Source: an uncultured Candidatus Rokubacteria bacterium (lineage in GTDB: Bacteria; Methylomirabilota; Methylomirabilia; Rokubacteriales; CSP1-6). From it: DNA of 64,000 nt. Shown piece after piece: positions 6,228 to 37,523 of the stretch. Position 1 is the stretch's first letter; every line of letters begins with the position of its first letter. Made by a program: the position numbers and the translations under genes. The notes under the pieces were generated by a model, which saw nothing but the letters and a program-made list of their open reading frames with translations, searched no databases and was not told where the DNA came from. The stretch spans positions 849,640 through 913,639 of the forward strand of contig CAVWFS010000019.1 in NCBI GenBank assembly GCA_963754315.1, read 5' to 3'.

Positions 6228-6290
6228 CAGCTTTGGCGGCGGCGATGCCCTTTGGCGGCGGCGGTGCCCTTTGGCGGCGCGATGCCCTAA
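6228..6290. repeat. imperfect ~20-bp tandem direct repeat x3 (GCCCTTTGGCGGCGGCGRTG) in the region upstream of the prsT-like gene
   Basis: Read directly: 'ctttggcggcggcgatgccc tttggcggcggcggtgccc tttggcggcgcgatgccc', 140-230 bp upstream of the minus-strand TPR gene start. Confidence 0.6.
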
Positions 6291-6501
6291 CGTGACCTCC
6301 GCGACTCAGAACTGGTCACCCACGGGAGCTATCGTCAAGAGTTGTGGATTGAGTGAGTTCGGGGCCGGCTGGCCCGGGCTCCTCAACACGCTGACACCGC
6401 ATCGCGAGCAGCTCGCCGCGTGGCTTGGCGAAGGCCTGCGGCTGACGAAGATCCACCGACCCCGCCCTCGTTCGCCACGCGACGGGCAAGGGCTAGTTGC
6501 A

Positions 6502-6906: not shown

Positions 6907-7101
6907 CTGTAAGTATATTTCCGCCTTTTACCCGAAGACACGCACCCAGTTCGCCAGCATTCACGTCGGTATAGTCGCTAGAATGCCCGCCACCGGGCTC
7001 GCGGCCCCCTCTATACATTCGGCGTCTATTTCTTAACATAAACGGCGCAATTTCCTTTACACCGGATCGCCCGTTCCAGCACCACGTCCGGCGCGCCACC
7101 C

Positions 7102-8477: not shown

Positions 8478-9893
8478 GTGACACCGTTGCGGGTGATCGT
8501 TCTGGATGAACATCGCGAGGTGAGTGAGCGCGCGAAGCGCGTCCTGGGACGTTTGGGCGTACGCGTCTCCTTCGCCGGCTCTGTTGCCGAGCTCGATCTG
8601 CTGTTGGCCAAGAGCGTGCCCACGGATGTCCTCATCGCCAACCTTGCCGGGGAGGCCACGGCCTGGGAGCTCGCCGCCCAGCTTCGCTCTGTGCGTTTCC
8701 TCGGCAAGACGCTGATCCTCGTCGAACGGCCCGCCGAGGCTGACATGGTACGCTCGATGCGGGTTCCTCGGAGTGAATGCGTCATCCGCCCCGCTTCCGT
8801 AGGTCTTATCGATGATCTTCTTCAGCAGGTCGCAACGGACTCGCTCGAGCCGGTGTCAGAACGCTCCTTCGAGCCTCATCGCGCCCACGACCATGAAGCC
8901 TTCAACCACATCGAAGCCTTCAACCACATCGTTGGTCGATCGAAACCCATGCGCGAAATCTTCTGGCGCATCGAGAAGGTCGCCAACAGCGACGCCAACG
9001 TGTGCATCTACGGCGAGAGCGGTACGGGGAAGGAGCTCATCGCACGCGCTCTTCACCATGCGAGTGGGCGGCGCGATCGCCCCTTCATCGCTCTCGACTG
9101 CACGACGATCCCGGAGGGGCTGATGGAGAGCCACCTTTTCGGACACGTCAAGGGGGCGTTCACGGGGGCGGTCGACCACCGAGAGGGTGTTTTCTCCCTA
9201 GCCCACAGCGGCACGCTCTTCATGGACGAGCTTTGTGAACTGAGCCTGCCCCTCCAGGCAAAGCTTCTCCGCGTGGTTCAAAGCCGCGAGTTTGTAAAAG
9301 TGGGGGGGACCAAGCCCGTTCAGACCGACATCCGCCTAATCACCGCCACCAACAAGGAGCCGAAACAGGAAGTCGATCACGGCAACTTCAGGGAGGACCT
9401 CTACTATCGGTTGGCGGTAGTCATGATCAAGGTGCCTCCACTGCGGGAACGGAGCCATGATATTCCTCTCCTCGTGGAGCACTTCGTGAGGAAATTTGCC
9501 GCCGCCTACAATCGGCCCATTCGTGCGATCTCGCCAGCGGCCATGCGGCGCCTGGTCGCCTCACCGTGGCCGGGAAACGTCAGGCAGCTCGAGAATCTTC
9601 TCGAGCAGGCGGTGGTGCTGGCCGACGGGGAGACGCTCAATGAGTGCGATCTCTTCACCGAGGACCCGATCGAGGAGACATTAGCCCAGACGTCCTTTGT
9701 CAGTTTGGAGCGGGGGCTTCCTCTTCGCGAAGTCGAGCGACGGTATATCCTCCGAACGCTTCAAACCTGTCAGGACAACCGGACGGAGACAGCTCGTCGT
9801 CTCGGCATTAGCGTCAGGTGCCTTCAGTATAAATTGAAGTCCTACTCACTCGCGGACGGGGCGCCGCTCGTCGACGGTCGACAAGCGCGGTAG
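8478..9893 (+). CDS. sigma-54-dependent transcriptional regulator (bacterial enhancer-binding protein) with degenerate, probably non-phosphorylatable receiver domain
   Basis: AAA+ sigma-54 activation core (IVGRSKPMREIF...GESGTGKELIARALH...ESHLFGHVKGAFTGA...GNFREDLYYRL) and C-terminal Fis-type HTH (TETARRLGISVRCLQYKL). In the N-terminal receiver-like region the phospho-acceptor position reads 'DVLIANLAGE' (Asn where Asp is expected); T/K positions are also non-canonical. GTG start. Internal 6-aa tandem duplication 'HEAFNHIEAFNHI'. Confidence 0.85.
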   Translation: MTPLRVIVLDEHREVSERAKRVLGRLGVRVSFAGSVAELDLLLAKSVPTDVLIANLAGEATAWELAAQLRSVRFLGKTLILVERPAEADMVRSMRVPRSECVIRPASVGLIDDLLQQVATDSLEPVSERSFEPHRAHDHEAFNHIEAFNHIVGRSKPMREIFWRIEKVANSDANVCIYGESGTGKELIARALHHASGRRDRPFIALDCTTIPEGLMESHLFGHVKGAFTGAVDHREGVFSLAHSGTLFMDELCELSLPLQAKLLRVVQSREFVKVGGTKPVQTDIRLITATNKEPKQEVDHGNFREDLYYRLAVVMIKVPPLRERSHDIPLLVEHFVRKFAAAYNRPIRAISPAAMRRLVASPWPGNVRQLENLLEQAVVLADGETLNECDLFTEDPIEETLAQTSFVSLERGLPLREVERRYILRTLQTCQDNRTETARRLGISVRCLQYKLKSYSLADGAPLVDGRQAR

Positions 9894-12623: not shown

Positions 12624-14111
12624 TCAAGGCGAGAAAGTCAGCTCAGCGACGCTCAGGGCAACGATGTCGCCGAGATCGACGGCATTGTCGTTCAGGCTCC
12701 CCGGGCGGATCAGCGCCGAGAACACGCGGTAGACACCGCTGGCGATGACCCCAGCCGGGGGGAAAATGTACTGAAAAAAGCTCGAGGCATCGAGCTGGAA
12801 GCCAGGGGGGACGACCTGCATCGGCGACAGAGAGGTTGGCGCCGACAGCGATCCCGTCCGCTCGAGGACGCCGTGGCCAGAGAACAGGACCAGCGTCTTT
12901 CGGTCAGGGAGCAGGGCACCGACGTAGAGGTCCAGGGCCGAGCTGGCGTCCGGATTGTGTACCGACAATCCGAGGCTTAGCGTCTGCCCTGAGCCGAACC
13001 GAGTTCCATTGAGCCAGACTCGCGTGTTGGCAAGTAGGGCGGCGCTCGGTCGCAACACATAGGCGTCCTCGTCGACGTCCGTCACCGTCACCAACAGACC
13101 AAAACCGGGCACATGGCCCAATCGACCGAACATACCATTCGGCGACGCGGCCCCGGGGCCGCCGGAAACCGTTGCCGACGACCACGAACGAGTCTCTGTG
13201 TCGAGGAAGTAAACGATGTCCCCGCCGCTCCAGACTATCATCCGATCGGTATCCGGGTCGTAGGCGAGGCCTGGCGACGTGTTGTTCGCGAGCAGAGGCG
13301 TGCCCGGCCACTTCTCGCGAATGAACGAGCTCCCTGGCCCGATGTCGTAGACTGACACGCCTCCGTTGTTGTCGTCTGGTCCTCCGATGATGACGAGCTT
13401 GCTCCTCACCGGATCCACGGCACTCGTCATGTGGTAGTCAATGAAATTGTCACTGGCCAGCCGATCGTAACTGTTGGTTTCGAAGGTGTACGCGTAGAGA
13501 TCCCGAGAGTCATGCAGATATACTTTCTTCGAGTTCGGGTCGTATGCGGCCACCACTCCGGCGTCGGGACCTGGTTGTGGACCCGACGGATCCATCCGCT
13601 GCCAGATAAGGGACGGGAAGTGGAACGTCCACGTGACACGACTGAAGTGCCCCGGGCCACAGGCGAGGCTTCCACCGTACACGAAGAGCCGGTCGGCATG
13701 GGCAATGTAGGCCATGCCACCGTAGCTGTGCCGGGAATTGGGCCGCCCGTCCGCCAGCGTCTCCTGGCAGTCGCGAGTACCAATCGGTAAATTAGGCGGG
13801 CTCGGGTCGGTCAAGCGCTGGATCGTCCGCGTGGCCAGATCCAGTGCGTACAGCTCGTTTCCTGCGTAGTCGTTATGGCCGCCGCCCCACATGATAAGGC
13901 GGTCTCGAGTCGAGTCCACCACCCCACCGTTCCAAGCTAGGATCACGTTCTTGCAGCGCCCAGCAAAGTCGTAGTCCGGTGTGGACGGCGGGCACACCGC
14001 TCGCATCTTCGTGTTGGGAATGGCTGTCCAGCCGGAAGGAAAATCCTGCGCGTTGGCCCGCGATGCTTGCGGGGGAAGCAACCAGGGCACCAGGAGCATC
14101 ACGGTGGCCAT
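12624..14111 (-). CDS. secreted Kelch-like beta-propeller protein (family A) with C-terminal ~120-aa 'D' domain; galactose-oxidase-like architecture
   Basis: Signal peptide (start taken at M27 'MATVMLLVPWLL'). Repeated blade-like motifs (ILAWNGG, WGGGHNDY, FVYGGSL, LVIIGG, MIVWSGG). Paralog of 41582..42724 and of the N-terminus of 44606..49180. C-terminal domain shared with 15249..16891. Confidence 0.7.
   Translation of the reverse strand: MATVMLLVPWLLPPQASRANAQDFPSGWTAIPNTKMRAVCPPSTPDYDFAGRCKNVILAWNGGVVDSTRDRLIMWGGGHNDYAGNELYALDLATRTIQRLTDPSPPNLPIGTRDCQETLADGRPNSRHSYGGMAYIAHADRLFVYGGSLACGPGHFSRVTWTFHFPSLIWQRMDPSGPQPGPDAGVVAAYDPNSKKVYLHDSRDLYAYTFETNSYDRLASDNFIDYHMTSAVDPVRSKLVIIGGPDDNNGGVSVYDIGPGSSFIREKWPGTPLLANNTSPGLAYDPDTDRMIVWSGGDIVYFLDTETRSWSSATVSGGPGAASPNGMFGRLGHVPGFGLLVTVTDVDEDAYVLRPSAALLANTRVWLNGTRFGSGQTLSLGLSVHNPDASSALDLYVGALLPDRKTLVLFSGHGVLERTGSLSAPTSLSPMQVVPPGFQLDASSFFQYIFPPAGVIASGVYRVFSALIRPGSLNDNAVDLGDIVALSVAELTFSP
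12627..12989. repeat. IR-D copy 1: ~360-bp segment encoding C-terminal 'D' domain, inverted repeat partner at 16526..16888 (~85-90% identity)
   Basis: Encoded peptides 'GQTLSLGLSVHNP...VVPPGFQLDASSFFQYIFPPAGV...ALSVAELTFSP' vs 'GQTLNLGLSVHNP...VVPPGFQLDAPSFFQYTFPPAGV...ALSVVELSFAP'. Antisense track ORFs 12492..12980(+) and 16574..16906(-) are also similar, which shows nucleotide-level similarity. Confidence 0.7.
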
Positions 14112-14220
14112 CAGCAGATACCGAATCAAGTGAGCGTCCCTCCACTTGTGTCGTGGACACCAGGGATCGTGTCCCCAGCAGTGGTGCACGAGCGGTGATT
14201 CGCGGAGGGCAGGTGCCCCT

Positions 14221-15109
14221 TCAGTTCAGCACGGCCGACAGCCACACGGACTGATTGTCGCTGAGCGCGTGCAGCCCTTCAAGCTGCATATATTGCCGCT
14301 GCAGCTGCCACTCGTCGTTCGGCTCGAGCAGCGGCCCCCACCAGCCGGATGATCGCCGCCTCGTTGGGGAAAATTCCCACCACGTCCGTCCGCTAGCTTG
14401 CAGCGCTCCAGCGGATTGGTGCGATCGAGCCATGCCTGGGACCAGCGTCAGCCCCCCTTAGGGGGAACTTCTCCCGCAGCTGGCCGCTCACCGCGCCATT
14501 GAGCGATGGCCGCTCCCTGGCTCTCCTGGGCGAACACCGTGTTGATCAAGGCCAGGACCATCTACCGCTGCCCCTTGCCCGCGTGGGCCAGGGCCTTGCG
14601 GATGAAGTGCACCCGACACCGCTGCCAGCTCGCCTTGAGCACCTTGGCCACGGCTGCCCTCAACCCCTCGTGGGCATGGGAAATCACCAGCTTGACGCCA
14701 CGCAACCCCCGCCGGGTCAGGCTGCGCAGGACGCTGGTCCAAAACGGCTCCGCTTCGCTCGGCCCCACCACCAGCCCCAGCACCTCTCGCACCCCGTCGG
14801 TGTTCACCGCCACCGACACGATGCGCCCCGCCTCCCGCACCTTCACGTAGGTCGCATCGATCCACAGGTACGGCCAATCCCGTCCAGGGGTCGGTTCACG
14901 AATGTCCCGACCCGCTCGTCAATCTGACTGCACAGCCGCGAGACTTGACTCTTCGAGATGCCGCTCATCCCCAGCGCGCGGACCACCTCATCCACCGAGC
15001 GCGCGTCGACACCCCCTGGATGTACGCCTCTTGGATCACCAGGCAACTGGTGTCTACCTCGCCCGGGCGGCGGTTGGCTGGACCGACTCAAGCAAGGCGG
15101 GCACATCAC
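14221..15109 (-). mobile_element. degraded IS256-family transposase gene (frameshifts, in-frame stop, N-terminus missing)
   Basis: Track ORFs 14843..15109(-) '...VVRALGMSGISKSQVSRLCSQIDERVGTFVNRPLDG' and 14562..14846(-) 'KVREAGRIVSVAVNTDGVREVLGLVVGPSEAEPFWTSVLRSLTRRGLRGVKLVISHAHEGLRAAVAKVLKASWQRCRVHFIRKAL' match conserved IS256/mutator-type transposase blocks but are in different frames. Further downstream 'MVLALINTVFAQESQGAAIAQW' follows an in-frame TAG. 14221..14433(-) carries 'LLEPNDEWQLQRQYMQLEGLHALSD' (IS256 C-terminus) in yet another frame. Confidence 0.75.
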
Positions 15110-15407
15110 GCTTGTGTATCATGCTCGTCGGCTATCGAGCGGTGCCAACTCTACGGCGAAACGTGAGCCAGTGGCTGGACCAGGCGCCCCGGCTCGTCGC
15201 CGTGCATAGGGCAGTCGATGTTGCCAGTGATCCGCTCACCCCTGACCCTTGACGGCTGACCGCACAGGGTCGATCCTGATGGTCAGTGGGCATGGGGCGC
15301 CATTTCGAAAGAAGCACGCGGTGATTCGAGGCCGTCAGGCTGCGCTCGAGCTTCTCCTGTTCACCCTCGCCATATCTCTGCTGGTAGGAACCGCTCAGGG
15401 GCACACG

Positions 15408-16468
15408 ACTCCGATCGACATTCCGAGTGGGGTCTTCATTGCGCTGGAGCGGCCGGACTGGGGCCGGGGGCCGGCGCGGGAGACGAAGCACTCGACGTAC
15501 GCGCACAACCCGATCGACGGGCGGCTGTACCAGATGGGGGGGACTTTGGGGGGACGGTGGGGGGGTCGTCGTACCGGCAGGACATGTACTCGGTGTCGAT
15601 TGCGGAGCGGTGGGCGAGCCGGAACGACCGGAACGCGGGCTGGCGGCAGGAGTACCCGTACTGTGGGCCGGAGGGAGGGCGGCAGCCGAAGTCGCCGGAC
15701 TATGTCGGGTGGACGTGGGACACCAAGCGGCGGGTGTTCTGGAGCGTGCCGGGCACGTTTGTAATCCCGGCGGCGGTGTGTCCAGGCATCACGGCGAGCT
15801 GGGGGGACGACCCCCCGAAGTATTTGTTCAACCACCTGATGACCTTTGATCCCTTCGAGCCGGACCTGACCCAGCGCTGGCAGGACCGGGGGCGCGACAT
15901 TGGGCCGACGGCCGTGGACACGTGGATGAGCGTGTACGACGCGGGGACCGACAGTCTGATTCGCTTCGGGTGGGACGGGGCGCGCGGGGCGATGGTGAAC
16001 ATCTATGACATTACGGCCGGGCAGTGGACGGCGAAGTTGCTGGGGTTGAACGCGGTGGGGCAGGACATCCGGATCTTTAAGGAGATGCTGGCGGCGGACT
16101 GGGGGCAGCGGGTGATTTATGTGATCGACGGGATTGCGGGGCGGCTGCATCGCTACCGGGTAGATGGGCGGACGATCGAGGACCTGGGGGTGGTGCCGGG
16201 GGGCCCGATCGCCTATGCGGCCAACAATGATGCCTACGCGGTGTGGGACAGCCTGCACCGGGTGCTGTTCTTTTTCCGGATGGACACGAGCATCCTGCAC
16301 GTCTATCACCCGGACACGCAGGAGTGGGAGACGCCACCGCTGGTGACAGATCCGCCGGGGCTGACGCCGCACGTGCGGCACGCGGCGGTGTTCGACCCGT
16401 ACCAGAACGTGCTGGTCCTCCTGGGGACGACGGACACGGCGAACCCCTACATGTACCTGTACCGCTAT
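15408..16468. repeat. IR-B copy 1: ~1.06-kb segment ~97% identical (inverted) to 46406..47470 inside the giant gene
   Basis: Encoded proteins identical over long stretches (e.g. 'DIGPTAVDTWMSVYDAGTDSLIRFGWDGARGAMVNIYDITAGQWTAKLLGLNAVGQDIRIFKEMLAADWGQRVIYVIDGIAGRLHRYRVDGRTIEDLG'). Antisense/alternate-frame track ORFs are also near-identical (16243..16482+ vs 46293..46631-; 15395..16558- vs 45554..47050+), which proves DNA-level identity. Confidence 0.85.
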
Positions 16469-19785: not shown

Positions 19786-22059
19786 ATGGATCAGTGGCGT
19801 CTCGCTCATCGCATCGCCCTCGGGATCCTTCGCCGGCGCAAGACCCTCGCCGTGGTCACCTTCCTCTTGGCTGTGCTGGTGACCTTTCCCGCCGCCTATT
19901 ATCTGTCACATGAACCGCCTCGATACCAGGCGGTGGCCACGATTCTGCTCGAGGTCAAGCCCGATCGCGTCCCCCTCTTTCAGGAACTCTCGCCCATGCG
20001 GCCGCTGTCGGTCCAGATGGCCATCCTCCGCAGCCGGTCGCTCGCCGAGAGCGTCCTCAGCAGCCTGCCTCGAGCGTCGGTCCAAGATTTGACCGACAAC
20101 CTGTACTACGTCGATTACCTCCAGAAGCTCGTGAACCTCTATCATCGGCTGCTCGGAGTGCCACCGGTTACTTCGAGCTCACGCGGGGAGGCGGTGGCGG
20201 AGCTCCAGGGCGGGCGGATGAAGTTCGTTCCCCTCGGTGACGGCCTCGTGTCGGTCTCGGCCATCGCGTCCAAACCGGAGATCGCGGTGGACCTCGCTCA
20301 AACCTACATCGAGGTCCTTCTCGGCCGGACGCGAACGTTCAACATCGACGATGCGCGAGTGTCGCGAGAGTTCCTCGAGCAGCAGGTCGCCGACGTCAAG
20401 AAGAAGCTGCAGGCGAGCGAAGAATCGCTGCGCGTCTTCACCTCCTCCCACGGCGGCATCAAGGTTCCCGAGCAAAGCCAGGCGACGACTACCCAGCTCT
20501 CCCAGGCCGAGACGGCGCTGGCCGAGGTGCAAGCTAACCGGAAAATGATTGAATCCAGGCTAGCCGGGCTCCGCGAGAAGGTTGAGCAGCAGAAGCGGAC
20601 GCCATCCCCGGCCGTCTCGCTTGGCCCGGCCAGCACGCCGACGCCGTCCAGTGCGGCATCGCCTGAAGTGAGGCGATTGCGCGATCAGCTTGAACAGCTC
20701 GAGACGACGCTGCTCGATCTCCGCATGCGATTCACGGACGAGCATCCGCGGGTCAGACCCGTCAAGGACAAGCTCGCTGAGTTACGGAGCCAGCTCGGGA
20801 GTGCTGTCAAAGAGAGCACGATCGTCACGCCCATGGTAGGAGCGGTACCACCCTCGGAGAGGGTCAACTTTTCAGAGCAGCTCGTCGCTCTGGAAACCTC
20901 TCTGCTGGCCATGACCGCGCAGGAGGAGGCTTTACGCAAGCAAGCCGACACCCTGCGCGCCAGCCTCGCGGGATTGTCGCGAAGCGAGCTGGCCTACAGC
21001 CGTCTGGGACGTGAAGTCGACAGCAACCGTAACCTCTACTCTCTTCTCTCGGAAAAGCTCACCGCCGCCCGTATTCGGGAGCAGGGTGAGATGAAGGTCG
21101 TGAAAGTCATTGACCCGCCGGAGCTCGGGGTGAGCGCGAGCAACGACAAGCGCTTTAAGTTCCTGACCCTCGCGGCGGGCCTGGCCCTGCTCGTGGGGGG
21201 CGGGGTGCCCGTGGCCGCCGAGCTTCTCGGCAAGCACATCGAGTCGGAGGATGATGTTCATCAGGCGACCGATTTGCAGGTCATCGCCCTCGTCCCGCAT
21301 CGCCGCTCGGGCCGCCCCGTATTCACGGCAATCGCCGGCCTCGAAAGACCCCGCCAGTCCGAGAACGATATTATATTCAGCGAGGCGTTTCGATCCCTCC
21401 GGGTAGCCGTCCAGCTTGCTATGCGCTCGGACAACGTCCGCAGTCTTCTTATCGCCAGCGCGTCCCCCGGCGACGGCAAGACCACCGTGTTGATCAACCT
21501 CGGACTGGCCTTCAACGAGGGCGGAACGCACGTGGTGCTCGCCGATACCGATTTTCTTCGGCCAACGCTGCACAGCAGTATGCACGTGCCATCCACGGCC
21601 GGATTGGGTGAGGTCTTGCGGGCCGAGCGAACGCTCGATGACTCGCTTTTCCTGGTCGCCGACGGGCTGTGGGTGGCGGCCCCCGCCCACGGTATCGATG
21701 CCAGCGTCCGGGGGAGTCTTGCCACCAGCCGTCTGAAGGCCCTCGTCGGCGAGATGGCGACGAAGGCCGAGCTCGTGATCTGTGATTCGCCGCCGGTCCT
21801 CGCCGCCCCCGAGAGCCTCTTTCTGGGGTCTGCTGTCGACGCCGTCATCTTGGTCGTCAAGGCCGGTCGAACAAGCTTCCGGGACCTGGCCCGCACTAAG
21901 CGGAAGCTCGAAAGCGTCGGCGCCAGAATCCTGGGCGTGGTGATCAACGATTTGCCAGCCGCGACCCTGCGGCGGACGTATCGACGGTATGCCGCCAGCT
22001 ATCAGAAGGATAACGCCATGGTCAGGAAGATCGGCCCTTCGCAACCGCCGCATGAATGA
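19786..22059 (+). CDS. polysaccharide chain-length determinant fused to Wzc-type tyrosine autokinase (PEP-CTERM-locus ChnLen + TyrKin)
   Basis: Wzz-like N-terminal TM + long coiled-coil periplasmic region + second TM. C-terminal P-loop ATPase 'LLIASASPGDGKTTVLINLGLAF...VLADTDFLRPTLH...VICDSPPVLAAPE'. Start at ATG (M64 of track ORF) 4 bp after upstream stop. Confidence 0.85.
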   Translation: MDQWRLAHRIALGILRRRKTLAVVTFLLAVLVTFPAAYYLSHEPPRYQAVATILLEVKPDRVPLFQELSPMRPLSVQMAILRSRSLAESVLSSLPRASVQDLTDNLYYVDYLQKLVNLYHRLLGVPPVTSSSRGEAVAELQGGRMKFVPLGDGLVSVSAIASKPEIAVDLAQTYIEVLLGRTRTFNIDDARVSREFLEQQVADVKKKLQASEESLRVFTSSHGGIKVPEQSQATTTQLSQAETALAEVQANRKMIESRLAGLREKVEQQKRTPSPAVSLGPASTPTPSSAASPEVRRLRDQLEQLETTLLDLRMRFTDEHPRVRPVKDKLAELRSQLGSAVKESTIVTPMVGAVPPSERVNFSEQLVALETSLLAMTAQEEALRKQADTLRASLAGLSRSELAYSRLGREVDSNRNLYSLLSEKLTAARIREQGEMKVVKVIDPPELGVSASNDKRFKFLTLAAGLALLVGGGVPVAAELLGKHIESEDDVHQATDLQVIALVPHRRSGRPVFTAIAGLERPRQSENDIIFSEAFRSLRVAVQLAMRSDNVRSLLIASASPGDGKTTVLINLGLAFNEGGTHVVLADTDFLRPTLHSSMHVPSTAGLGEVLRAERTLDDSLFLVADGLWVAAPAHGIDASVRGSLATSRLKALVGEMATKAELVICDSPPVLAAPESLFLGSAVDAVILVVKAGRTSFRDLARTKRKLESVGARILGVVINDLPAATLRRTYRRYAASYQKDNAMVRKIGPSQPPHE

Positions 22060-22187
22060 CCACTGCCTGGCGACTGTTACCGGTCACCGTGCCATCGCCG
22101 TTAGCCTCAGCGGTCGCGGAGCAGCCGCATCGTCGACGTGCGGAGCATGCTGGGTGGCAACCGTCGTCGCATCGTGACCGTCTAAGC

Positions 22188-23042
22188 ATGCGCAACGCGC
22201 TCACCTTTGACGTCGAGGAGTACTTCCACGTGGAGGCATTCAAGGACATCATCGAGACCGACCGGTGGGCCAGCCTTGAGTCGCGGGTCGTGGCGAGCAC
22301 ACACCGGGTGCTCGATCTCCTCGAGGCGCGCCACGTGTCGGCGACGTTTTTTGTCCTCGGTTGGGTCGCCGACCGGCACCGGGCTCTCGTGCGCGAAATC
22401 CAGTCGCGAGGCCACGAGGTGGCTTGCCACAGCTACGCGCACCAGGTGATCTACACCATGGACCGTGAGGCTTTCCGGGCCGACGTACGCCGGGCGAAGC
22501 AAGCCCTCGAGGACGCGACGGGGGCCACGGTCCTAGGCTATCGGGCGCCCACGTTCTCTGTGGTGGAGCAGACGCTGTGGGCGCTCGAAGTCCTCGCCGA
22601 AGAGGGCTTTCGCTACGACTCGAGCATCTTCCCGATACGTCACGACCGTTATGGAATGTCCCAGGCGCCTCGCTTCCCGCACCGTGTGTCCTTGCCGAGC
22701 GGCGGAAGGATAGTGGAGTTCCCTGTGTCAACTATGAGGGTGGTAGGGCAGAACGTGCCCTTCTCGGGCGGGGGGTACTTTCGGGTAGCACCGTATCCTC
22801 TTGTCCGGGCTGCCTTACGCCATGTCAACCGGCGCGACCGGCTGGCAGCCATGGTCTATCTCCATCCTTGGGAGATGGACCCGGAGCAACCACGCTTTCC
22901 GGTCGGGGCGGTAGCACGCGTACGCCACTACGCCAACCTTGGCCAGACAGCCGCCAAGCTCGACCGCCTGCTTCAGGACTTCTCCTTCGCTCCGGCCTGT
23001 CAGGTGCTCGGCGAGCAGGGCTTCTGGGAGGTCACCGCGTGA
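22188..23042 (+). CDS. polysaccharide deacetylase family protein, PEP-CTERM-locus subfamily (XrtA-associated)
   Basis: N-terminus 'MRNALTFDVEEYFHVEAF...' and overall NodB-like core + C-terminal extension, characteristic of exosortase-locus deacetylases. Start at M45 of track ORF. Confidence 0.8.
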   Translation: MRNALTFDVEEYFHVEAFKDIIETDRWASLESRVVASTHRVLDLLEARHVSATFFVLGWVADRHRALVREIQSRGHEVACHSYAHQVIYTMDREAFRADVRRAKQALEDATGATVLGYRAPTFSVVEQTLWALEVLAEEGFRYDSSIFPIRHDRYGMSQAPRFPHRVSLPSGGRIVEFPVSTMRVVGQNVPFSGGGYFRVAPYPLVRAALRHVNRRDRLAAMVYLHPWEMDPEQPRFPVGAVARVRHYANLGQTAAKLDRLLQDFSFAPACQVLGEQGFWEVTA

Positions 23043-24134
23043 ACATCGTCACCGTGGTGGGCGCCCGCCCGAACTTCGTGAAGATCGCCCCGATCATGGT
23101 CGAGTTGGGCCGCTGTCCGGAGCTATCTTCGATGTCTGATTCACACCGGTCAGCACTACGACGGGCCTATGTCCGAGCAGTTCTTCGCCGATCTCGACTA
23201 TCCGGCCTCCCGACATCAACCTCGAGGTGGGCTCCGGCTCACACGCCGCTCAGATCGCCGAGGTCATGCGGGGCTCGAACCCGTGCTGGAGCGTCTGCGC
23301 CCTGATATGGTGCTGGTGGTCGGAGACGTGAACTCGACATTCGCCGCGGCCATCATCGCGGTCAAGATGAGCATTCCCGTTGCCCACGTCGAAGCCGGTC
23401 TCCGAAGCTTCGATCGCACGCATGCCGGAGGAGATCAACAGGATCCTGACCGATGCTGTCGCGGACTGCTCTTCGCCACCGAGGAGACCGCGCAGACGCA
23501 ACCTGGCCGCGGAGGGCGTCGCCCCAGAGCAGCATCCATTTCGTCGGCAACGTCATGATCGATACGCTCTTGCCGCTTCAAGACCAAGGCGTCGGCCTCA
23601 CGAATTCTCGAGGAGCTCGGCCTCGCCCACCGCGGATTCGTGGTGTTGACTCTACATCGTCCGAGCAACGTGGACAGTTCGGAGGCGCTGCAGCGCCTGC
23701 TCGGTGCCCTCGCCTGCATCGGCTCCGATGTGCCCATTGTCTTTCCGGTTCATCCAAGGACGTGGCCGCGGCTGAAACGAGCACAGTCGACGACGGCCAT
23801 CGCCCGTGGCCTCAGGTTGATCGATCCACTGTCCTATCTCGACTTCATCAAGCTCATGAGCAGCGCTGTCTGCGTGCTGACCGACTCCGGCGGCATCCAG
23901 GAGGAAACCACGGCTCTCGGCATCCCCTGCCTGACCCTTCGCACCACCACGGAGCGACCGGTGACGACCACGTGCGGTACCAATCGAGTCGTGGGGCTCG
24001 ACCCCGAGAGGATCGCGCGGGCATGGGATGAGGTCCGCGACGGACAATGGCCGCGCGGAAACATCCCGGAACTGTGGGACGGACGGACTGCCGAGCGAAT
24101 TGTGCGCATTCTACGCGGGCGAGAGAGGAACTGA
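23039..24134 (+). pseudogene. wecB: UDP-N-acetylglucosamine 2-epimerase (non-hydrolysing) gene, heavily frameshifted (>=5 frame changes in 1.1 kb)
   Basis: Conserved WecB blocks appear in order but across track ORFs in different frames (23039 frame, 23169..23558, 23380..23649, 23453..24031, 23640..24134). The blocks are 'VNIVTVVGARPNFVKIAPIMVEL', 'LIHTGQHYDGPMSEQFFADL', 'PDINLEVGSGSHAAQIAEVM', 'LEPVLERLRPDMVLVVGDVNSTFAAAIIAVKMSIPVAHVEAGLRSFDRT', 'MPEEINRILTDAVAD', 'IHFVGNVMIDTLL', 'VLTLHRPSNVDS...VFPVHPRTWPRL...VLTDSGGIQEETTALGIPCLTLRTTTERP'. Confidence 0.7.
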
Positions 24135-24143
24135 GAGCATCCG

Positions 24144-25166
24144 ATGGAAATCGTCGAACTTCGGGGGGAGACGCTGGAGTGGGATACTTTCGTGAGAACC
24201 TCCCCCGCTGGCAGTCCGTTTCACCTGGTGCGATGGCGACGCGCGGTCGAGGACGCCTTCGGGCATCGCGCGCATTACCTGATGGCCCGCGACGGTGGCC
24301 GTCTTGAGGGCATTCTTCCCCTCTTCGAGGTCACCGGGCTGCTGGGCGGTCGGGCCTTAATCTCTATCCCGTACGCTGTCTACGGCGGGCTATGCGCCAA
24401 CTCGCCGGCCGCGGGCCGAGAGCTTCTGGAGGCCGCCACCGCCCTCGCCAGGGAGCGCAAAGCCGCCTACATCGAACTGCGCCAGCGGCAGGACCTCGGT
24501 CTCGACCTTCCCACCAAAGCTCTCTACGTCACCTTCGTTCGTCAGATTTCGGACAGCGAGGAGGCCAACTTCCAGATCATTCCTCGCAAGCAGCGGCGAA
24601 TGGTTCGTCAAGGGGCCAAGCACGGGCTGCGCGTGGAAATCAGCCCGGATCACTTTGACGCCTTCTATGACATCTACGCGCGTAGCCTGCACAACCTTGG
24701 CTCACCCGTGTTCCCCCGCGCGCTGCTGCGCGGTGTTCTCGCCCACTTCGATAAGGACTGCGACCTCCTTACCGTCTGGCATGGAAATCGCATGGTTGCG
24801 GGTGTCATGAGCCTCTACTACGAGGACGCAGTGATGCCCTACTACGGGGGCGCGAGGCAGGAGGCGTTCACATACGCCGTCAACGACTTCATGTATTGGG
24901 AGCTGATGTGCCATGCCGCCAGGCGGGGCTGCCGTCTCTTCGACTTCGGCCGAAGCCGCGAGGGGACGGGCCCCTACCACTTCAAGCGACACTGGGGCTT
25001 CGAGCCAGCTCCTCTTCCCTACCAATACGTCATGCTGCGCGAGGGTGCCTTGCCCAACCTCAGCCCGTCTAATCCCAGGTTCCAGCTCGCCACTCGTGTG
25101 TGGAAACGGTTACCCCTCTCGGTCACCAAGGCCGTGGGCCCCCTCCTCGCCCGCCACCTACCATAA
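24144..25166 (+). CDS. FemAB-family protein, PEP-CTERM system-associated (GNAT-fold aminoacyl/peptidyl transferase-like)
   Basis: 340 aa. N-terminus 'MEIVELRGETLEWDTFV...SPFHLVRWRRAVEDAFGHRAHYL' and overall FemAB-like length/organisation as found in exosortase loci. Confidence 0.7.
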   Translation: MEIVELRGETLEWDTFVRTSPAGSPFHLVRWRRAVEDAFGHRAHYLMARDGGRLEGILPLFEVTGLLGGRALISIPYAVYGGLCANSPAAGRELLEAATALARERKAAYIELRQRQDLGLDLPTKALYVTFVRQISDSEEANFQIIPRKQRRMVRQGAKHGLRVEISPDHFDAFYDIYARSLHNLGSPVFPRALLRGVLAHFDKDCDLLTVWHGNRMVAGVMSLYYEDAVMPYYGGARQEAFTYAVNDFMYWELMCHAARRGCRLFDFGRSREGTGPYHFKRHWGFEPAPLPYQYVMLREGALPNLSPSNPRFQLATRVWKRLPLSVTKAVGPLLARHLP

Positions 25167-25252: not shown

Positions 25253-26359
25253 ATGAAGGTTCGATTCATCACCTCGCTACGCGAGTTCGACGCCCTGGCG
25301 CCGATCTGGCAAGAGATCACGCGGGCCAGCGGGCAGACATCGCCCTTCGTGAGCCACGACTGGTTTGCGTGCTGCTGGAGGGCGGCCGGACCCAACCGCC
25401 ACCGAGAAGTCTGGCTTCTCGAGGATGCTGCGGGCCCCGTCGCGCTAATTCCGCTGGTCAAGCTGAGGAGTCGTACACGCGGTTTAAGCGTGCGAACGAT
25501 CCGTCTCCTCGATTCTCCCGATACGCCCTTCGTGGACTTCCCGGTCGCCCGAGGGATCGACGAGGTTATGTCGGTGTTTCTCGACTCGCTTCGACAGCGG
25601 CGGGACTGGGACGTCTTTTCGATCAGTAAGCTGCCCATCCATTCCATGCTTTATAAGGTTCTGGAGGCGACCCTACCCGGGCAATTTCCATGGCGGATTG
25701 CCGGCAGAGAGCAGTCCCCCCACCTGGCGATCTCCGGCACGTGGGACGATTTCTTACGGCAGAAGAGTCCGCGTTTCCGAAAGACGTTCCGCAACGTCGA
25801 GAACCGGATGGATCGCAGCGGCAAGGTCGCGATCGAAGAGCATCGCGAGGTCGATCCTGATGGGCCGGCCTTCGCCGATGCGCTGGAGGTCTCGCATCAG
25901 AGCTGGAAAGGGCCGAGCGGGGTGGCCATGGCGACGATGGAGGGTATGCCGCGCTTCTTCCGCGAACTCACTCGGCGGGCCAGCGCCAACGGTTGGCTCC
26001 ATCTCTGGATGCTTCGGCTCGACGGGCGTCCCATCGCCACCGAGTATCAGATCGGCGCTGGAGGCAGCCTCCACGCCCTCCGGGCCGATTTCGACGCCGC
26101 CTTCGCCGACTTATCGCCGGGGGCATTCCTCAATGGCTGCATCGTGAAGACACTCTTTCAGCGACGGACCGTCCACGAATACGATATGGGCCCGGGCACC
26201 AACGAGTACAAACTGCGGTGGGCAAGCGGGACCCACGAAGCGGTTGGCATGGAGATCAACGCACCAACTCCGTATGGGCGCCTATTGCACAAGGTTGAAA
26301 CGTGCCTGGTTCCCGCTGCTCGACGGTGGCGCGATCGCCTGGGTCAGGCATGCGGCTGA
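25253..26359 (+). CDS. GNAT-family (Acetyltransf_6/CelD/BioF2-like) acyltransferase
   Basis: 368 aa starting 'MKVRFITSLREFDALAPIWQEI...SPFVSHDWFACCW' (CelD/BioF2-like N-terminus). Start at M52 of track ORF. Confidence 0.6.
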   Translation: MKVRFITSLREFDALAPIWQEITRASGQTSPFVSHDWFACCWRAAGPNRHREVWLLEDAAGPVALIPLVKLRSRTRGLSVRTIRLLDSPDTPFVDFPVARGIDEVMSVFLDSLRQRRDWDVFSISKLPIHSMLYKVLEATLPGQFPWRIAGREQSPHLAISGTWDDFLRQKSPRFRKTFRNVENRMDRSGKVAIEEHREVDPDGPAFADALEVSHQSWKGPSGVAMATMEGMPRFFRELTRRASANGWLHLWMLRLDGRPIATEYQIGAGGSLHALRADFDAAFADLSPGAFLNGCIVKTLFQRRTVHEYDMGPGTNEYKLRWASGTHEAVGMEINAPTPYGRLLHKVETCLVPAARRWRDRLGQACG

Positions 26360-28209
26360 TTGGTGGACTCGTCAACTGGGACAACCAGCGGCCGGTAGGC
26401 CAGTCGAGGCTACGGGCGATGGCGACGGCTGGCGCGCCCGGGGCAGAATCAACTGCCCGGGTCGGCCTCAACGGATCCATGGGACTCTTCAGTGTCCTTG
26501 GCCACTCGAGTCTGGATGACGCGTCCGATATACAGTGGGTCGCTGATCTCGACCTGACCAACCTCGACGAGCTGAGAGCCCTGGCCCAGCCGCCGACCGG
26601 GAACGGCGGCTGGCTAGCCGCCCTTTGGCAGCGCGAAGGGCCGCGCTTCGTCCGCCGCCTCCGTGGAGCCTTCGCACTCGCCCTATGGGATGAGCGTCGG
26701 CGGACCTTGCTTTTGGCCGTCGACCATCTCGGCATACGGCGGCTTCACTACGCGACCGACCATCGCCGGACGGCCTTTGCATCCCGTCCAACCGCTGTAC
26801 TGCGAGAGGCGGATATCGACCGCAGCGTGGATCTGACGGCTATCTACAACTACTTAAACTTCGGGTATATCCCCGCCCCCGGCAGCGCCTTCCGGCACGC
26901 GCATCGTCTCCCGCCGGGCCATCTCCTCCTCGTCCACGACAGCCACGTCACCCTCGAACAGTACTGGGATGTGGCCTTCGAGAAGCGTTCTCTCCACGAG
27001 GGTGAGACGGCCGGGCAGCTGTACCACTTGACAGAGCACGCGGTTCGCACGGCGGTCGGCGGGACCGACTCGCAGGAGCTCGGCGCCTTTCTGAGCGGCG
27101 GAACCGACAGCAGCACGGTGGTGGGTCTCATGACCGCCATCTCCGGTGCCAAGGTCAAGACCTTTTCGATTGGTTTCGGAGAGGAACGTTATAATGAATT
27201 GTCCTATGCCGAGCTGACGGCGAATCATTTCGGGACCGCCCACCATACCCATATCGTCACTCCGCAGGAGGCGTTCAAGCTCCTGCCGGTGCTGGTCGAA
27301 GCGTATGATGAACCGTTCGGGAACAGCTCGGCCATCGGCACCCTCGTGTGTGCCGAACTTGCGCGCGACTTCGGGATACGGATGTTGCTCGCGGGCGACG
27401 GTGGCGACGAGATCTTCGGTGGGAACGAGCGCTACCGCACAGATCGGATCTTCGCGCGCTATGCTCATATGCCGTCGATCTTCCGGCGCCAGATATTCGA
27501 GCCGATTCTCTTCCGCCTACCGGCCGGCGACCACGGGCTGGTGAGGCGTGCTCAACGTTACGTTCGGCGGGCCAGCATGCCGAACCCGCGGCGCTTCTAC
27601 TCGTATGAATTCTTCTTCGCGCAACAGGTCAACGATCTGCTCGATCCGGCCTTCTGCGCTGCTCTCGATGTCGAGGCACCCTGGAATATCCTCGAGGGAC
27701 ACTACGCGCGCACGGGCACCAGCGAGGAGCTGAATCGGCTGCTCTACCTGGACCTCAAGCTCACCATCGGTGACAACGACCTCCTGAAGGTCACGCGCAC
27801 ATGCGAGTTGGCCTCGGTAGGTGTCCGCTTCCCCCTCCTCGACCTTGCCCTCGTCGATTTCACCGGAACGTGGCCGGCACGCTTCAAGGTTCGCGGCCTG
27901 GAGAAGCGTTACCTCTTCAAAAAGACCTTCGCCAAGCTGCTCCCCGCGGCCACCCTGGCTAAGAAAAAGCACGGCTTCGGTGTGCCGACGAGCGCGTGGC
28001 TCAAGGGCGAGCCTGAGTTCATCGCGCTCGCCCGTGACACCCTCCTCAGCTCCCGATGCCGACAACGCGGCTATTTTCGTCAGGGGGCCCTTGAGCATCT
28101 CTTCCAATGTCAGCAGGCTGACGTCACGCCGTACTACGGAAGCATCCTGTGGACGGTATTGATGCTCGAACTCTGGCATCAGCGGCACGTCGACCCGGTG
28201 GCGGCATGA
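26350..28209 (+). CDS. asparagine synthetase-family amidotransferase #1 (exosortase-system associated type); N-terminal Cys nucleophile absent
   Basis: AsnB-like synthetase domain 'LSGGTDSSTVVGLM' (PP-loop SGGxDS). N-terminus reads 'MRLIGG...' rather than 'MCGI...', so the class-II glutaminase Cys2 is missing. Start at M17 of track ORF, overlapping upstream stop. Confidence 0.8.
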   Translation: MRLIGGLVNWDNQRPVGQSRLRAMATAGAPGAESTARVGLNGSMGLFSVLGHSSLDDASDIQWVADLDLTNLDELRALAQPPTGNGGWLAALWQREGPRFVRRLRGAFALALWDERRRTLLLAVDHLGIRRLHYATDHRRTAFASRPTAVLREADIDRSVDLTAIYNYLNFGYIPAPGSAFRHAHRLPPGHLLLVHDSHVTLEQYWDVAFEKRSLHEGETAGQLYHLTEHAVRTAVGGTDSQELGAFLSGGTDSSTVVGLMTAISGAKVKTFSIGFGEERYNELSYAELTANHFGTAHHTHIVTPQEAFKLLPVLVEAYDEPFGNSSAIGTLVCAELARDFGIRMLLAGDGGDEIFGGNERYRTDRIFARYAHMPSIFRRQIFEPILFRLPAGDHGLVRRAQRYVRRASMPNPRRFYSYEFFFAQQVNDLLDPAFCAALDVEAPWNILEGHYARTGTSEELNRLLYLDLKLTIGDNDLLKVTRTCELASVGVRFPLLDLALVDFTGTWPARFKVRGLEKRYLFKKTFAKLLPAATLAKKKHGFGVPTSAWLKGEPEFIALARDTLLSSRCRQRGYFRQGALEHLFQCQQADVTPYYGSILWTVLMLELWHQRHVDPVAA

Positions 28210-34863: not shown

Positions 34864-36767
34864 ATGTGTGGAATTGCCGGTATCGTCCACGCCGACCCCA
34901 AGTATCCGATCGATCTCGACTTGCTCCGTCGCATGACCATGACTCTTGAACATCGGGGCCCTGATGCCCAGAGTGTTCGGGGGTGGCGCGGCGCCGCCTT
35001 CGGCCACCGCCGCCTCAGCATCATCGATCTGGCCACGGGGGATCAGCCCGTTTTCAACGAAGACCGGACGAAGGCGGTGGTGTTAAACGGCGAGATCTAT
35101 AACTATCACGACCTGCGCGCTGAGCTCGAAGCGCGGGGCCACCGCTTCGCGACGCAGAGCGATACGGAGTCTATCGTCCACGCCTACGAGGAATACGGGG
35201 ATCGCTGCGTGGAACACCTCCGCGGGATGTTCGCATTCGCGGTCTGGGATGACCGCGAGCGGCGCCTGCTGTTAGCTCGGGACCGGGTCGGCAAGAAACC
35301 CCTCTACTATACCCACGACGGAGAGCGCCTCGCCTTCGCCTCCGAACTGAAGGCGCTGCTTGCAGACCCTGCTTGCAAGCGGGAGATAGACCTCCAAACC
35401 CTGAACGACTACTTTTCGCTGGGAGCGGTGCAGGCGCCGGCGACGATCTTTCGGGGTGTGCGCCAGCTTCCTCCCGCGCACCTGCTCGTGTGGAAACAGG
35501 GGGTCATACGGATCCACGAGTACTGGGATGTTCCCCGCGACCCGATCGAGCCGAAAACGGAAGCCCAGGCTCTCGAGCAGTTTGCCGAGATATTCGAAGA
35601 GGCGGTGCGACTACGACTCATGAGCGACGTGCCGCTCGGCGCATTCTTGAGCGGAGGGGTCGACTCGAGCGCAGTGGTCGCCATGATGGCGCGACTTTCG
35701 CGGCGGGCGGTGGTGACGACGAGTGTCGGCTTCGCCGAGCGGGCCTTTAACGAGATCGAGCACGCTCGTGCGGTCGCTCGTACGATCAGGAGCGATCACT
35801 CCGAAGTGCTCGTGCGCTCGCAGGCCGCTGACATCCTACCGAGGCTGGTCTGGCATCTCGACGAGCCGTTCGCGGACTCCTCTGCCCTGCCCACGTACTA
35901 CGTCGCCAAGGCCGCCCGGGAACGGGTGACGGTCGCGCTCTCCGGCGACGGCGGTGACGAGGGGTTTGCCGGTTATCAGCGCCGCTATGGCCTTAACGCC
36001 TGGGAGACTCGCTGCCGACGTTGGCTCCCGGGTTGGGTCCGCACCGGCATTCTAGCTCCGGCCGGCACGATATATCCAAAAGCCGACTGGCTTCCCCGGC
36101 CGCTGCGAGCCCGATACTTCCTCCAGAACCTCGGGACGACGTTCGAGCGGGCCTACTTCGCCGATCTCTCCCTGTTCCGACGAGAAGAGAAGGCTGCCCT
36201 CCTCTCCGCGGAGCTCAGAAGGGAACTCAACGGGCACGACTCCTTCACGGCCTTCGCGCGCCACTTCGCGCGCGTGGCCGGCCTGGATCCCCTACGCCAG
36301 CTGCTCTATGTCGATCTCAAGACCTGGCTCGCCAACGACATCCTGGTCAAAGTTGATCGGATGAGCATGGCGAACTCGCTCGAGGTTCGCTCCCCGTTCC
36401 TGGACCACAAGGTGATCGAGTTTGCCGCCACCTTGCCGTCCAACCTCAAGTATCGCGGGCGCACTTCTAAGTACCTTCTGAAACGCCACCTGGAGGGGCA
36501 GCTCCCGCGTTCCGTGATTCATCGTGCGAAACATGGATTCGAGATGCCAGTGGCCGCCTGGCTCCGCGGCGAGCTGCGGGAGATGGGTCAGGAGCTGTTA
36601 CTGTCGCCGCGCGCACTCAATCGTGGCTACGTGGTGGCGTCTGGCGTACGCCGTCTCTGGGACCCCACCAGCGAGGTCTCCAGGATCACTCGGCACGGCT
36701 CTGGGCCCTGCTTGTCCTCGAGCTGTGGCACCGGACGTTCGTGGATCGGGTGCCACCGGGCATATGA
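34864..36767 (+). CDS. asparagine synthetase-family amidotransferase #3; C-terminal 30 aa reached only after a -1 frameshift in a C-run (~36672)
   Basis: 'MCGIAGIVHA' start (M13 of track ORF 34828..37110); 'LSGGVDSSAVVAMM' PP-loop. Expected C-terminus '...DHSARLWALLVLELWHRTFVDRVPPGI*' (compare paralogs ending '...ILWTVLMLELWHQRHV' / '...IWSLLCFEEWARQW') lies in the -1 frame after 'gaccccacc'. Its TGA forms an ATGA overlap with the next gene's start. The track's 760-aa read-through is an artefact of the shift. Confidence 0.7.
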
Positions 36768-37501: not shown

Positions 37502-37523
37502 GCGTGCGGCTTGGAGCGCGGAC

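Follow-up and report, generated by a model that had tools for sequence, protein, structure and literature searches.

Eight clustered frameshifts in a wecB-family epimerase gene of an XrtA/PEP-CTERM exopolysaccharide locus, probably errors of the deposited consensus

Related epimerases and comparable disruptions

Among the solved members of the WecB/MnaA family (TIGR00236, PF02350) are 1f6d and 1vgv, structures of E. coli WecB, a non-hydrolysing UDP-GlcNAc 2-epimerase. The gene described here lies in a 64,000-nucleotide stretch of a metagenome contig, the whole of which is called the window below. Its product, once the reading frame is restored, matches the family end to end, and 357 of its residues align to 1f6d (E = 4e-55). 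It differs in that eight indels break the gene into pieces in three frames, and in that the gene is located between a deacetylase gene and a FemAB-like gene in an XrtA/PEP-CTERM operon, not in an ECA or teichoic-acid cluster. The best-scoring solved relatives are epimerases of the WbpI/WlbD type (PDB 8sxv, 8sxy and 8sy9, E = 7e-89 over residues 2–305), UDP-2,3-diacetamido-2,3-dideoxy-glucuronic acid 2-epimerases with UDP-GlcNAc3NAcA as substrate, while UDP-GlcNAc 2-epimerases such as 4neq score lower (9e-80). These similarities do not fix the substrate specificity, which might be either UDP-GlcNAc, giving UDP-ManNAc, or UDP-GlcNAc3NAcA. No partner genes of the WbpA/B/E/D type were found among the annotated ORFs of the window, where a pathway for a di-N-acetylated uronic acid is not evident.

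The frameshifts seen in long-read assemblies are likewise single-base indels that break well-conserved genes and can be corrected with a protein as guide, but these are scattered and linked to homopolymers, whereas the gene studied here has eight in 438 nt, mostly outside homopolymers, and elsewhere in the window frame-breaking indels amount to roughly one per 10 kb or fewer. Mosaic genes that arise by homologous recombination with diverged alleles are known for polysaccharide-locus genes and pbp genes. Like them, the window gene has an internal tract with sharp boundaries in which dS is about three times higher, a preserved coding function and flanks of about 90% identity; true mosaic genes stay in frame, however, whereas this tract has eight frameshifts and no donor was found among the sequences compared.

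Organization of the locus

The genes on both sides of the epimerase gene and two regulators in the window are as follows.

22188–23042, + strand: intact XrtA-system polysaccharide deacetylase gene (TIGR03006, 377.8 bits against a cut-off of 276), encoding the 284-aa product P0247, which the public protein collection contains
23039–24134, + strand: wecB-family (Epimerase_2/TIGR00236) non-hydrolysing 2-epimerase gene, frame-disrupted in its deposited form
24144–25166, + strand: intact gene for a FemAB-family XrtA/PEP-CTERM-associated protein (TIGR03019, 401 bits against a cut-off of 260)
8478–9893, upstream: second sigma-54 activator
40206–41552: sigma-54 response regulator, as judged from its homologue in locus L081

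The GTG start codon of the wecB-family gene at 23039 overlaps the stop codon of the upstream gene (GTGA, 23039–23042), and its own stop codon (24132–24134) is separated by 9 nt from the gene that begins at 24144, so the operon architecture is untouched. Neither promoter nor terminator signals were detected in the wecB region, and scans of it against Rfam and for antisense or wrong-frame ORFs gave nothing. A TIGR03013 glycosyltransferase, the TIGR03006 deacetylase and the TIGR03019 FemAB protein all score above their cut-offs and mark the region as an XrtA/PEP-CTERM exopolysaccharide locus, which also contains an exosortase (PF09721, profile positions 2–252 of 254), a Wzy_C/DUF5935 protein, three AsnB-like genes and a histidine kinase. 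A crude motif scan of the window ORFs gave no convincing PEP-CTERM substrate protein; these may be encoded elsewhere in the genome. No second wecB copy was found in the window.

Locus L165, from a close relative in forest soil (87% nucleotide identity), has an intact wecB at the same position. The order deacetylase, wecB, FemAB with an intact wecB is found in L001, L005 and L165, and in L003 and L004 an intact wecB is followed by FemAB; in all syntenic loci of more distant relatives wecB is intact as well. L165 was reached through a cluster mate of the neighbouring protein P0367, and L081 through P0125. A scan of the genome collection with the restored protein gave 80 loci with a best identity of 63%, and L165 was not among them. 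The protein search and the metagenome scan made with the C-terminal half of the protein gave no match above 65% identity; the L165 gene escaped both, since a contig end truncates its product.

An earlier sequence-only reading of this DNA had placed a wecB gene at 23039–24134, colinear with its family, repeatedly frameshifted and damaged locally in an exopolysaccharide operon, and our analysis agrees on each of these points. It had also held the neighbouring genes to be intact, which is largely right; the two exceptions, both further downstream, are the deletion of 1 nt at 36664 and a changed exosortase tail (39835–40066). Along 10.6 kb of alignment with another contig from the relative, the deletion is the sole isolated case; its surroundings show the normal identity of about 90%, and downstream 85% conservation persists in the old frame. 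By this alignment the contig holds at least one further isolated 1-nt deletion like those in wecB.

The restored epimerase

The deposited gene has no single ORF of about 360–380 codons, the longest in-frame piece being 164 aa, and its pieces in three frames match PF02350 at successive profile positions. The frame was restored by a frameshift-aware alignment to a profile of 60 homologues. The restored frame has 363 codons that are colinear with the 363-column consensus, with eight frame changes, no gaps at the codon level and no stop codons. With six bases removed and two added in silico, the 363-aa translation scores 340.5 bits on TIGR00236 (cut-off 210.15) and covers profile positions 1–363 of 366. 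The sequence-only reading had named a corrected ORF of about 370 aa as the finding that would speak against its inference of decay; such an ORF is obtained here in silico, and the intact wecB of L165 points the same way.

Among 120 homologues, 151 columns reach a conservation of at least 95%; the restored protein retains 148 of these, and one of the three lost residues is a guessed residue at an indel site. The retention is 78 of 80 in the half that bears the indels and 70 of 71 in the clean half. The difference in identity between the N- and C-terminal parts is 0.069 for the restored protein, to be compared with 0.056 ± 0.018 for the family, and the GC3 of the restored frame (0.82) is like that of the neighbouring genes. 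A codon-usage Viterbi segmentation of the window was too coarse for short compensating shifts and did not resolve the eight in wecB; it was used solely for the gross gene map.

Distribution of the eight indels

Six insertions and two deletions, each of one base, disrupt the gene; all lie within 23135–23572 (438 nt), and the same eight events appear in an independent nucleotide alignment to the intact gene of L165.

23135, + strand: indel 1, extra T in a stretch otherwise identical to L165
23206, + strand: indel 2, one extra base, placement uncertain within 23196–23208
23267–23273, + strand: indel 3, one base missing in or adjoining ATG-CGGGG
23420–23421, + strand: indel 4, one extra base that separates the Thr codon from the Met codon in the motif FDRTMPEE
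23467–23471, + strand: indel 5, one base missing at about 23470, with GAC-CTG-CTC to GAC-TG-CTC as the simplest origin
23492–23496, + strand: indel 6, one extra base in both the profile and the L165 alignment
23533, + strand: indel 7, extra C preceding the IHFVGNVMID motif
23572–23573, + strand: indel 8, one extra base, CTCTT[G]CCGC
23573–24134, + strand: clean C-terminal part of wecB, 562 nt (TIGR00236, 2.6e-35), containing the mechanical ORF 23640–24134 (164 aa)

The gene had previously been credited with at least five frameshifts; that it is frameshifted stands, and the number becomes eight in both the profile and the L165 alignments. Two compensating shifts noted earlier within about 70 nt around PDINLEVGSGSHAAQIAEVM correspond to the insertion at 23206 and the deletion at 23267.

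There are no indels in the remaining 562 nt, which align to L165 with 88.6% nucleotide identity and no gaps, and apart from a gene boundary no other frame-breaking indel is found in the 3.3 kb aligned to this relative. The cluster is far beyond chance. A calculation by hand puts the probability that, within the aligned part of the gene, the tract receives all eight by chance at (438/976)^8, about 1.6e-3; at the rate of the tract, the rest of the gene should have about 10 indels, and the probability of finding none is about 3e-5.

Most of the eight sites are outside homopolymers, and neither slippery heptamers nor long homopolymers are present at any of them. This bears on programmed recoding, in which ribosomal frameshifting, transcriptional slippage or RNA editing would express wecB despite the shifts. 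The coding signal is fully kept in every segment between the indels, as recoding would have it, but eight shifts of both signs would be required at sites without the usual sequence context, and close as well as distant relatives encode the protein in one frame. We know of no bacterial system that recodes eight shifts of both signs, and the probability of this explanation is close to nil.

A divergent tract coincides with the indels

Decay and artefact can be told apart without reads by restoring the frame against a profile and then examining dN, dS and where the indels lie in an alignment to a close relative. In the alignment to L165 there is only one tract where the divergence jumps.

23135–23572, + strand: divergent tract of 438 nt holding all eight indels, with 63–78% nucleotide identity to L165 compared with about 90% in the flanks

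Over codons 33–178 the comparison with L165 gives a dS of 0.87, a dN of 0.19, an omega of 0.22 and 71% amino acid identity, whereas dS in the flanks is 0.29–0.35; downstream of the tract omega is 0.16, and dN in the C-terminal part is 0.057. The segments between the indels alternate between about 0.9 and 0.55–0.79 identity to L165, a pattern that haplotype switching at the indels or motif conservation might give, the segments with high identity being also the most conserved motifs. Polarised with 120 homologues, the differences from L165 are symmetric, the consensus being matched by the window in 16 cases, by L165 in 12 and by neither in 12; the identity to the family is 0.694 in the window, and L165 has 0.704. 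By these values and by their omega, the tract's substitutions have the character of selected changes and not of noise, and the tract reads as a divergent, functional-looking allele plus indels.

Within the tract L165 is no closer to the window than are homologues from MAGs of other named phyla: its nucleotide identity to the window is 75.0%, that of the distant homologue L015 is 74.9%, and several distant proteins are nearer to the window than L165 is. All signal of close kinship is thus lost, indicating a second template or allele exactly where the indels sit. A donor was found neither among the 165 fetched loci (best nucleotide identity 75%) nor among the 120 homologues (best protein identity 75%). 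The coincidence of the frameshifts with the anomalous divergence is invisible from the window sequence alone.

The carrier of the non-native tract could be either the window or L165, which is a short-read scaffold and itself possibly chimeric. If the substitutions of the window were native and correct and L165 were recombinant or chimeric, the eight indels would be unrelated errors or mutations. Short-read metagenome assemblies such as the L165 scaffold can switch between populations inside conserved genes, and the identity of the L165 tract to distant homologues reaches 80%, a little above that of the window. This reading does not explain why the indels and the divergent tract coincide so exactly, and we consider it improbable; the coincidence indicates one cause that acted on the window sequence or on its source population.

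Conservation argues against gradual decay

Many frameshifts in one gene are the classic appearance of a pseudogene, and the sequence-only reading had called the gene decayed. An ordinary pseudogene, with wecB function lost long ago and frameshifts accumulating since, is nevertheless difficult to reconcile with an omega of 0.16–0.22 against a relative at a dS of about 0.3, with the 562 nt downstream that have neither indel nor stop codon, with the retained conserved residues and the family-like identity, and with the preserved coupling of start and stop codons to the adjacent genes. Bacterial pseudogenes have a deletional bias, and the 6:2 ratio of insertions to deletions runs against it; in a dead gene deletions should predominate and the indels be spread along its length. 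By a hand estimate, eight indels at about one per ten substitutions need about 0.18 neutral substitutions per site, which is the whole branch to L165, and dN in the C-terminal part would then be about threefold above the observed 0.057. The description as decayed is therefore not upheld, and an old pseudogene is highly improbable. Taken together, these comparisons effectively exclude gradual pseudogene decay as well as programmed recoding of wecB.

A consensus error is the favoured origin

The best explanation, with a probability that we put at about 0.65, is that the consensus of the metagenome contig is locally wrong, through mixed templates or lack of polishing, with the true wecB probably intact. 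A low-quality assembly region had been offered as the fallback in the sequence-only reading, and it is this possibility that the evidence favours. The organism would then most likely have an intact, functional wecB-family 2-epimerase at this position, and the eight indels would be errors of the deposited consensus. Over about 440 nt the population would carry, or be mixed with, a strongly divergent functional-looking allele, which could be a recombinant or mosaic tract, a paralogue or a template from another strain. Reads of different templates might pile up over this tract, or the reads used for polishing or gap closing might fail to map to it, and the consensus would keep residual indels, here mostly insertions. 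The merging of colinear alleles does not by itself give frameshifts, and the passage from mixed templates to +/-1 errors would be a further, plausible step.

To judge from its length of 925,744 bp, the contig may be long-read-derived, and the indels were probably introduced by the assembly process. Six insertions and two deletions resemble the insertion-rich error spectra of long reads, as reported in the proovframe preprint, in which localised heterogeneity within a population is also described as a cause of unpolishable data (doi 10.1101/2021.08.23.457338). Indel errors are reported to persist at low coverage or where the population is locally heterogeneous (doi 10.1101/2021.08.23.457338; PMC9262707). 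A classic homopolymer error profile of the nanopore or 454 type does not fit the indels in wecB, as judged from their sites, and long homopolymers elsewhere in the window are in frame inside long ORFs.

52619: C11 run within the ORF 50717–54169(-), one coding frame being kept across the run
37589: G8 run within the upstream extension of 37524–38930
43567: G8 run within 43322–44509

These runs indicate that the contig is not generally noisy.

An accurate contig is also what would be expected if wecB had been genuinely inactivated, very recently and locally, by one event that swapped about 440 nt for divergent DNA with frameshifts. A frameshifted donor copy could have contributed the DNA by homeologous recombination or gene conversion, or the event could have been an error-prone template-switching repair; the exopolysaccharide of the strain would no longer need the enzyme, or a paralogue would supply its product. 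The indels coincide with the divergent tract as a single event predicts, the frameshifted form is the one deposited and used by gene callers (P0369), and the changes at gene ends relative to the relative, at 36664 and 39835–40066, might hint at a degrading locus. A donor with eight indels in 440 nt should, however, carry many unselected substitutions, whereas in the tract 78 of 80 near-invariant residues are retained, omega is 0.22 and the old frame has no stop codon. Real bacterial indels do not usually show insertions in a 6:2 excess over deletions, and the 165 loci and 120 homologues searched contained no donor. To our knowledge no recombination or repair process has been described that gives eight +/-1 shifts in an otherwise perfect coding allele, nor any bacterial mutational process that rewrites about 440 nt and shifts the frame eight times. 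A genuine recent inactivation is accordingly rated as unlikely. We regard it as very doubtful that one complex, error-prone template-switching or homeologous gene-conversion event produced the tract and eight real frameshifts together; if it did, it would silence one step of an otherwise intact XrtA exopolysaccharide pathway. Should the frameshifts be confirmed, they would constitute a modestly interesting case of clustered single-event gene inactivation inside a mosaic tract.

With a consensus error as the preferred reading, the main value of the case is one of caution. Annotation of the sequence as deposited would yield a wecB pseudogene, and a metabolic reconstruction could wrongly deny the PEP-CTERM polysaccharide a ManNAc-type sugar.

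Frameshifts in other deposited loci

Three large ENA contigs of the same synteny, with Flye-style names (contig_NNNN; L082–L084), have single wecB frameshifts and broken neighbouring genes. One of them, L083, has lost the identical base in GAC[C]TGCT at the homologous wecB codon. A fully systematic, context-specific error at this site was considered and rejected, the motif GACCTGC being intact elsewhere in both sequences; the loss shared with the window may partly reflect how the loci L082–L084 were selected. A wrong-frame 'protein' of 192 aa from the wecB tract of the window (P0369) is already present in a public protein collection, the gene callers having used the deposited sequence.

Genetic setting of wecB

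The wecB-family 2-epimerase gene (wecB) lies within a long co-directional operon at roughly 15.5-41.5 kb of the window, which on the evidence of NCBIfam and Pfam models is an XrtA/PEP-CTERM exopolysaccharide locus with the following genes.

Genes of the operon
22188-23042, TIGR03006 deacetylase, above the model cut-off, upstream neighbour of wecB
23039-24134 (+), wecB, frame-disrupted
24144-25166, TIGR03019 FemAB-like protein, above the model cut-off, downstream neighbour of wecB
TIGR03013 glycosyltransferase, above the model cut-off
Chain-length determinant/tyrosine kinase
GNAT
AsnB-like amidotransferases, three
Glycosyltransferases
Wzy_C/DUF5935 ligase-like protein
Histidine kinase
Exosortase (PF09721)
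Sigma-54 response regulator

Located between the deacetylase and FemAB genes, wecB has a GTG start sharing a GTGA overlap with the upstream stop, its end is 9 nt from the next start, and a signal scan of the region detected no promoter-like or terminator-like signals around it. The same placement is kept by an intact wecB in four syntenic loci (L001, L003, L004 and L005) labelled Rokubacteria, Methylomirabilota, Binatia and 'Acidimicrobiaceae', indicating that the intact state is the norm for such operons.

Frame changes in wecB

The pieces of the wecB protein are colinear across all three forward frames, and the in-frame pieces match PF02350 at successive profile positions; no family match was found for opposite-strand or wrong-frame ORFs of the wecB region. 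When the DNA was aligned by a frameshift-aware dynamic programme to a profile built from the 60 top-ranking homologues, 363 codons paired with 363 columns, without codon insertions or deletions and without a stop in the restored frame. Eight frame changes were needed, of which six are single extra bases and two are single missing bases. Pairwise alignment to L165, a contig from a close relative, recovers the same eight single-base indels, with no others in the remainder of wecB or in the deacetylase and chain-length genes. The sequence-only reading had counted at least five frameshifts, which both alignments raise to eight; its two compensating shifts are confirmed as real.

Single-base indels in wecB (profile and L165 alignments)
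1: 23135, +1 base
2: about 23206-23208, +1 base
3: about 23267-23272, -1 base
4: about 23420-23421, +1 base
5: about 23467-23470, -1 base
6: about 23492-23496, +1 base
7: 23533, +1 base
8: about 23572-23573, +1 base

All eight fall within the first half of the gene and the final 562 nt are uninterrupted. A wrong-frame ORF inside the broken gene, 23453-24031 (+), is found as a 192-aa protein (P0369) without family match in a public protein collection.

The restored protein

With 340.5 bits, the restored protein exceeds the TIGR00236 cut-off of 210.15, and the match covers the whole model. Compared with 120 homologues, each 62-67% identical to it, columns at least 95% conserved are kept at 78 of 80 positions in the broken half and 70 of 71 in the clean half, and the identity gap between the halves, 0.069, falls inside the range of the family itself, 0.056 +/- 0.018. 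GC3 of the broken part is 0.82 in the restored frame, similar to neighbouring genes. By model score and conserved residues the gene belongs, once its frame is restored, to the WecB/MnaA family. Among solved structures the best match is 8sxv, a WbpI-type UDP-GlcNAc3NAcA 2-epimerase (E 7e-89), ahead of the UDP-GlcNAc 2-epimerases 4neq (9e-80) and E. coli WecB 1f6d (4e-55), so that the exact substrate is not fixed by sequence.

The divergent tract

Proteins that cluster with the products of two neighbouring genes pointed to two forest-soil contigs of the relative, about 87-90% identical to the window in DNA, L081 spanning 34.5-45.2 kb of the window and L165 spanning 20717-24014. In L165 the deacetylase and wecB have the same arrangement, and wecB is open over all 324 codons to the contig end. 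Identity to the window is about 0.9 over the whole 3.3 kb with two exceptions, a gene-boundary zone at about 22017-22166 that dips to 0.70 and also contains indels, and about 23150-23570, the tract of the eight wecB indels, where it drops to 0.63-0.78.

Nei-Gojobori values, window against L165, frame-restored codons
Codons 1-32: dS 0.29, dN 0.029, omega 0.10, aa identity 94%
Codons 33-178 (tract): dS 0.87, dN 0.19, omega 0.22, aa identity 71%
Codons 179-325: dS 0.35, dN 0.057, omega 0.16, aa identity 89%

In the tract L165 is no nearer to the window (75.0% nucleotide identity) than L015 (74.9%) and L019 (73.8%), homologues taken from MAGs of other named phyla, and several distant homologues are nearer than L165 in protein sequence; in the C-terminal part L165 has 88.6% and the others at most about 74%. 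When the differences between window and L165 were polarised with the 120 homologues, the consensus was matched by the window in 16 cases, by L165 in 12 and by neither in 12, a symmetric outcome, and identity to the family is 0.694 and 0.704 respectively. On these counts the excess substitutions belong to an older allele that selection has shaped, and are neither random noise nor neutral decay. Random low-quality sequence is thereby excluded: it would have added substitutions with an omega near 1, but the excess has a dN/dS of about 0.26. No donor was found among the homologous loci and the 120 homologues compared, and either the window or L165 may be the one with the non-native tract.

Origin of the indels

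The gene had been described as decayed, which the data do not support: conserved residues are kept, the restored frame has no stops, omega is 0.16-0.22 and the last 562 nt are clean. Gradual pseudogene decay is effectively excluded: it predicts indels throughout the gene, mostly deletions, with stops and unselected substitutions, and nothing of the kind is present. If the remaining 562 nt had the indel density of the tract, they should contain about ten indels (probability of zero about 3e-5, hand calculation); omega in this part is 0.16. Programmed recoding is effectively excluded too, as it would have to shift the frame eight times, in both directions, at sites without a slippery motif, in a gene that the relatives have in one frame.

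The coincidence of the indels with the divergent tract has by hand calculation a probability of (438/976)^8, about 1.6e-3, within the aligned gene and about 1e-7 against all aligned coding sequence, which calls for one local cause. Most likely, with a probability of roughly 0.65, the eight indels are a local consensus problem where two templates meet, the second being possibly another population allele, another strain or a paralogue, and the remainder of the assembly would be accurate. The low-quality region that had been offered as an alternative to decay is the likeliest account, with the addition that the region is, by its divergence from L165, a mosaic, heterogeneous tract. In favour of a consensus problem are the bias of the indels towards insertions, the fully kept coding signal between them, a comparable, isolated 1-nt deletion at 36664 on the same contig, and other large contigs of this operon, with Flye-style names (contig_NNNN), that have single wecB frameshifts and broken neighbours. 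Frameshifts are also reported to persist in long-read metagenome assemblies, notably where local population heterogeneity blocks polishing (doi 10.1101/2021.08.23.457338; PMC9262707). However, the indel sites mostly lie outside homopolymers, the long homopolymers at other places in the window are in frame, and merging colinear alleles does not automatically give +/-1 errors. The main rival, a real, very recent and single localised event such as complex repair or gene conversion by a frameshifted copy, is rather unlikely; it must account for a tract of eight indels without unselected substitutions. Unless the indels prove real at read level, there is no new biology here.

Other frameshifts and features of the window

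L083 (at 3915) and L084 (at 4081), large unrelated contigs that carry this operon too, have one wecB frameshift each, at profile positions 143 and 164, which correspond to the events at about 23467 and 23533. The loss in L083 is identical to that in the window, GAC[C]TGCT, and the motif is intact elsewhere; as the loci were chosen as C-terminal fragments, the coincidence may partly be selection bias.

Relative to L081, the deletion at 36664 hits the third AsnB-like amidotransferase gene, 34864-36764 (+), at residue 600 of 633. Read in the old frame, the final 33 residues retain 85% conservation, and the stop of that frame keeps an ATGA overlap with the methyltransferase start; the deposited ORF extends to 37110. 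The first AsnB-like gene (26302-28209) aligns with the XrtA-system amidotransferase model from residue 108 onwards only, scoring below the cut-off, and its N-terminus appears to be without the Met-Cys start usual in glutamine amidotransferases. The exosortase gene (38927-39859) has, relative to L081, a 5-nt insertion at 39835 and, after it, an additional stretch of about 162 nt with lower GC (tail 39835-40066), making the ORF 63 residues shorter than the relative's, with a complete Pfam exosortase domain. Upstream of the histidine kinase, 37512-37707 has about 185 nt more than L081.

A C11 tract at 52619-52629 (G11 on the coding strand), which could be slippage-prone, lies within an intact 1150-aa cyclase/AAA/TPR ORF, 50717-54169 (-), which shows this assembly to keep long homopolymers in frame. 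The coding signal is weak in 6067-8421 and 14137-15536; neither has Rfam matches, and the 186-296-aa ORFs of the former have no Pfam matches. The window has paralogous segments of about 1 kb in two families with three copies each, as listed below; one is a 395-aa protein of unknown function and the other a Kelch-like beta-propeller.

Paralogous segment families
Family 1: 43322-44509, 15411-16467, 46406-47467 (-)
Family 2: 41594-42721, 48122-49050 (-), 13051-14034 (-)

Each family has one copy inside a 1559-aa surface-type protein, 44606-49285 (-).
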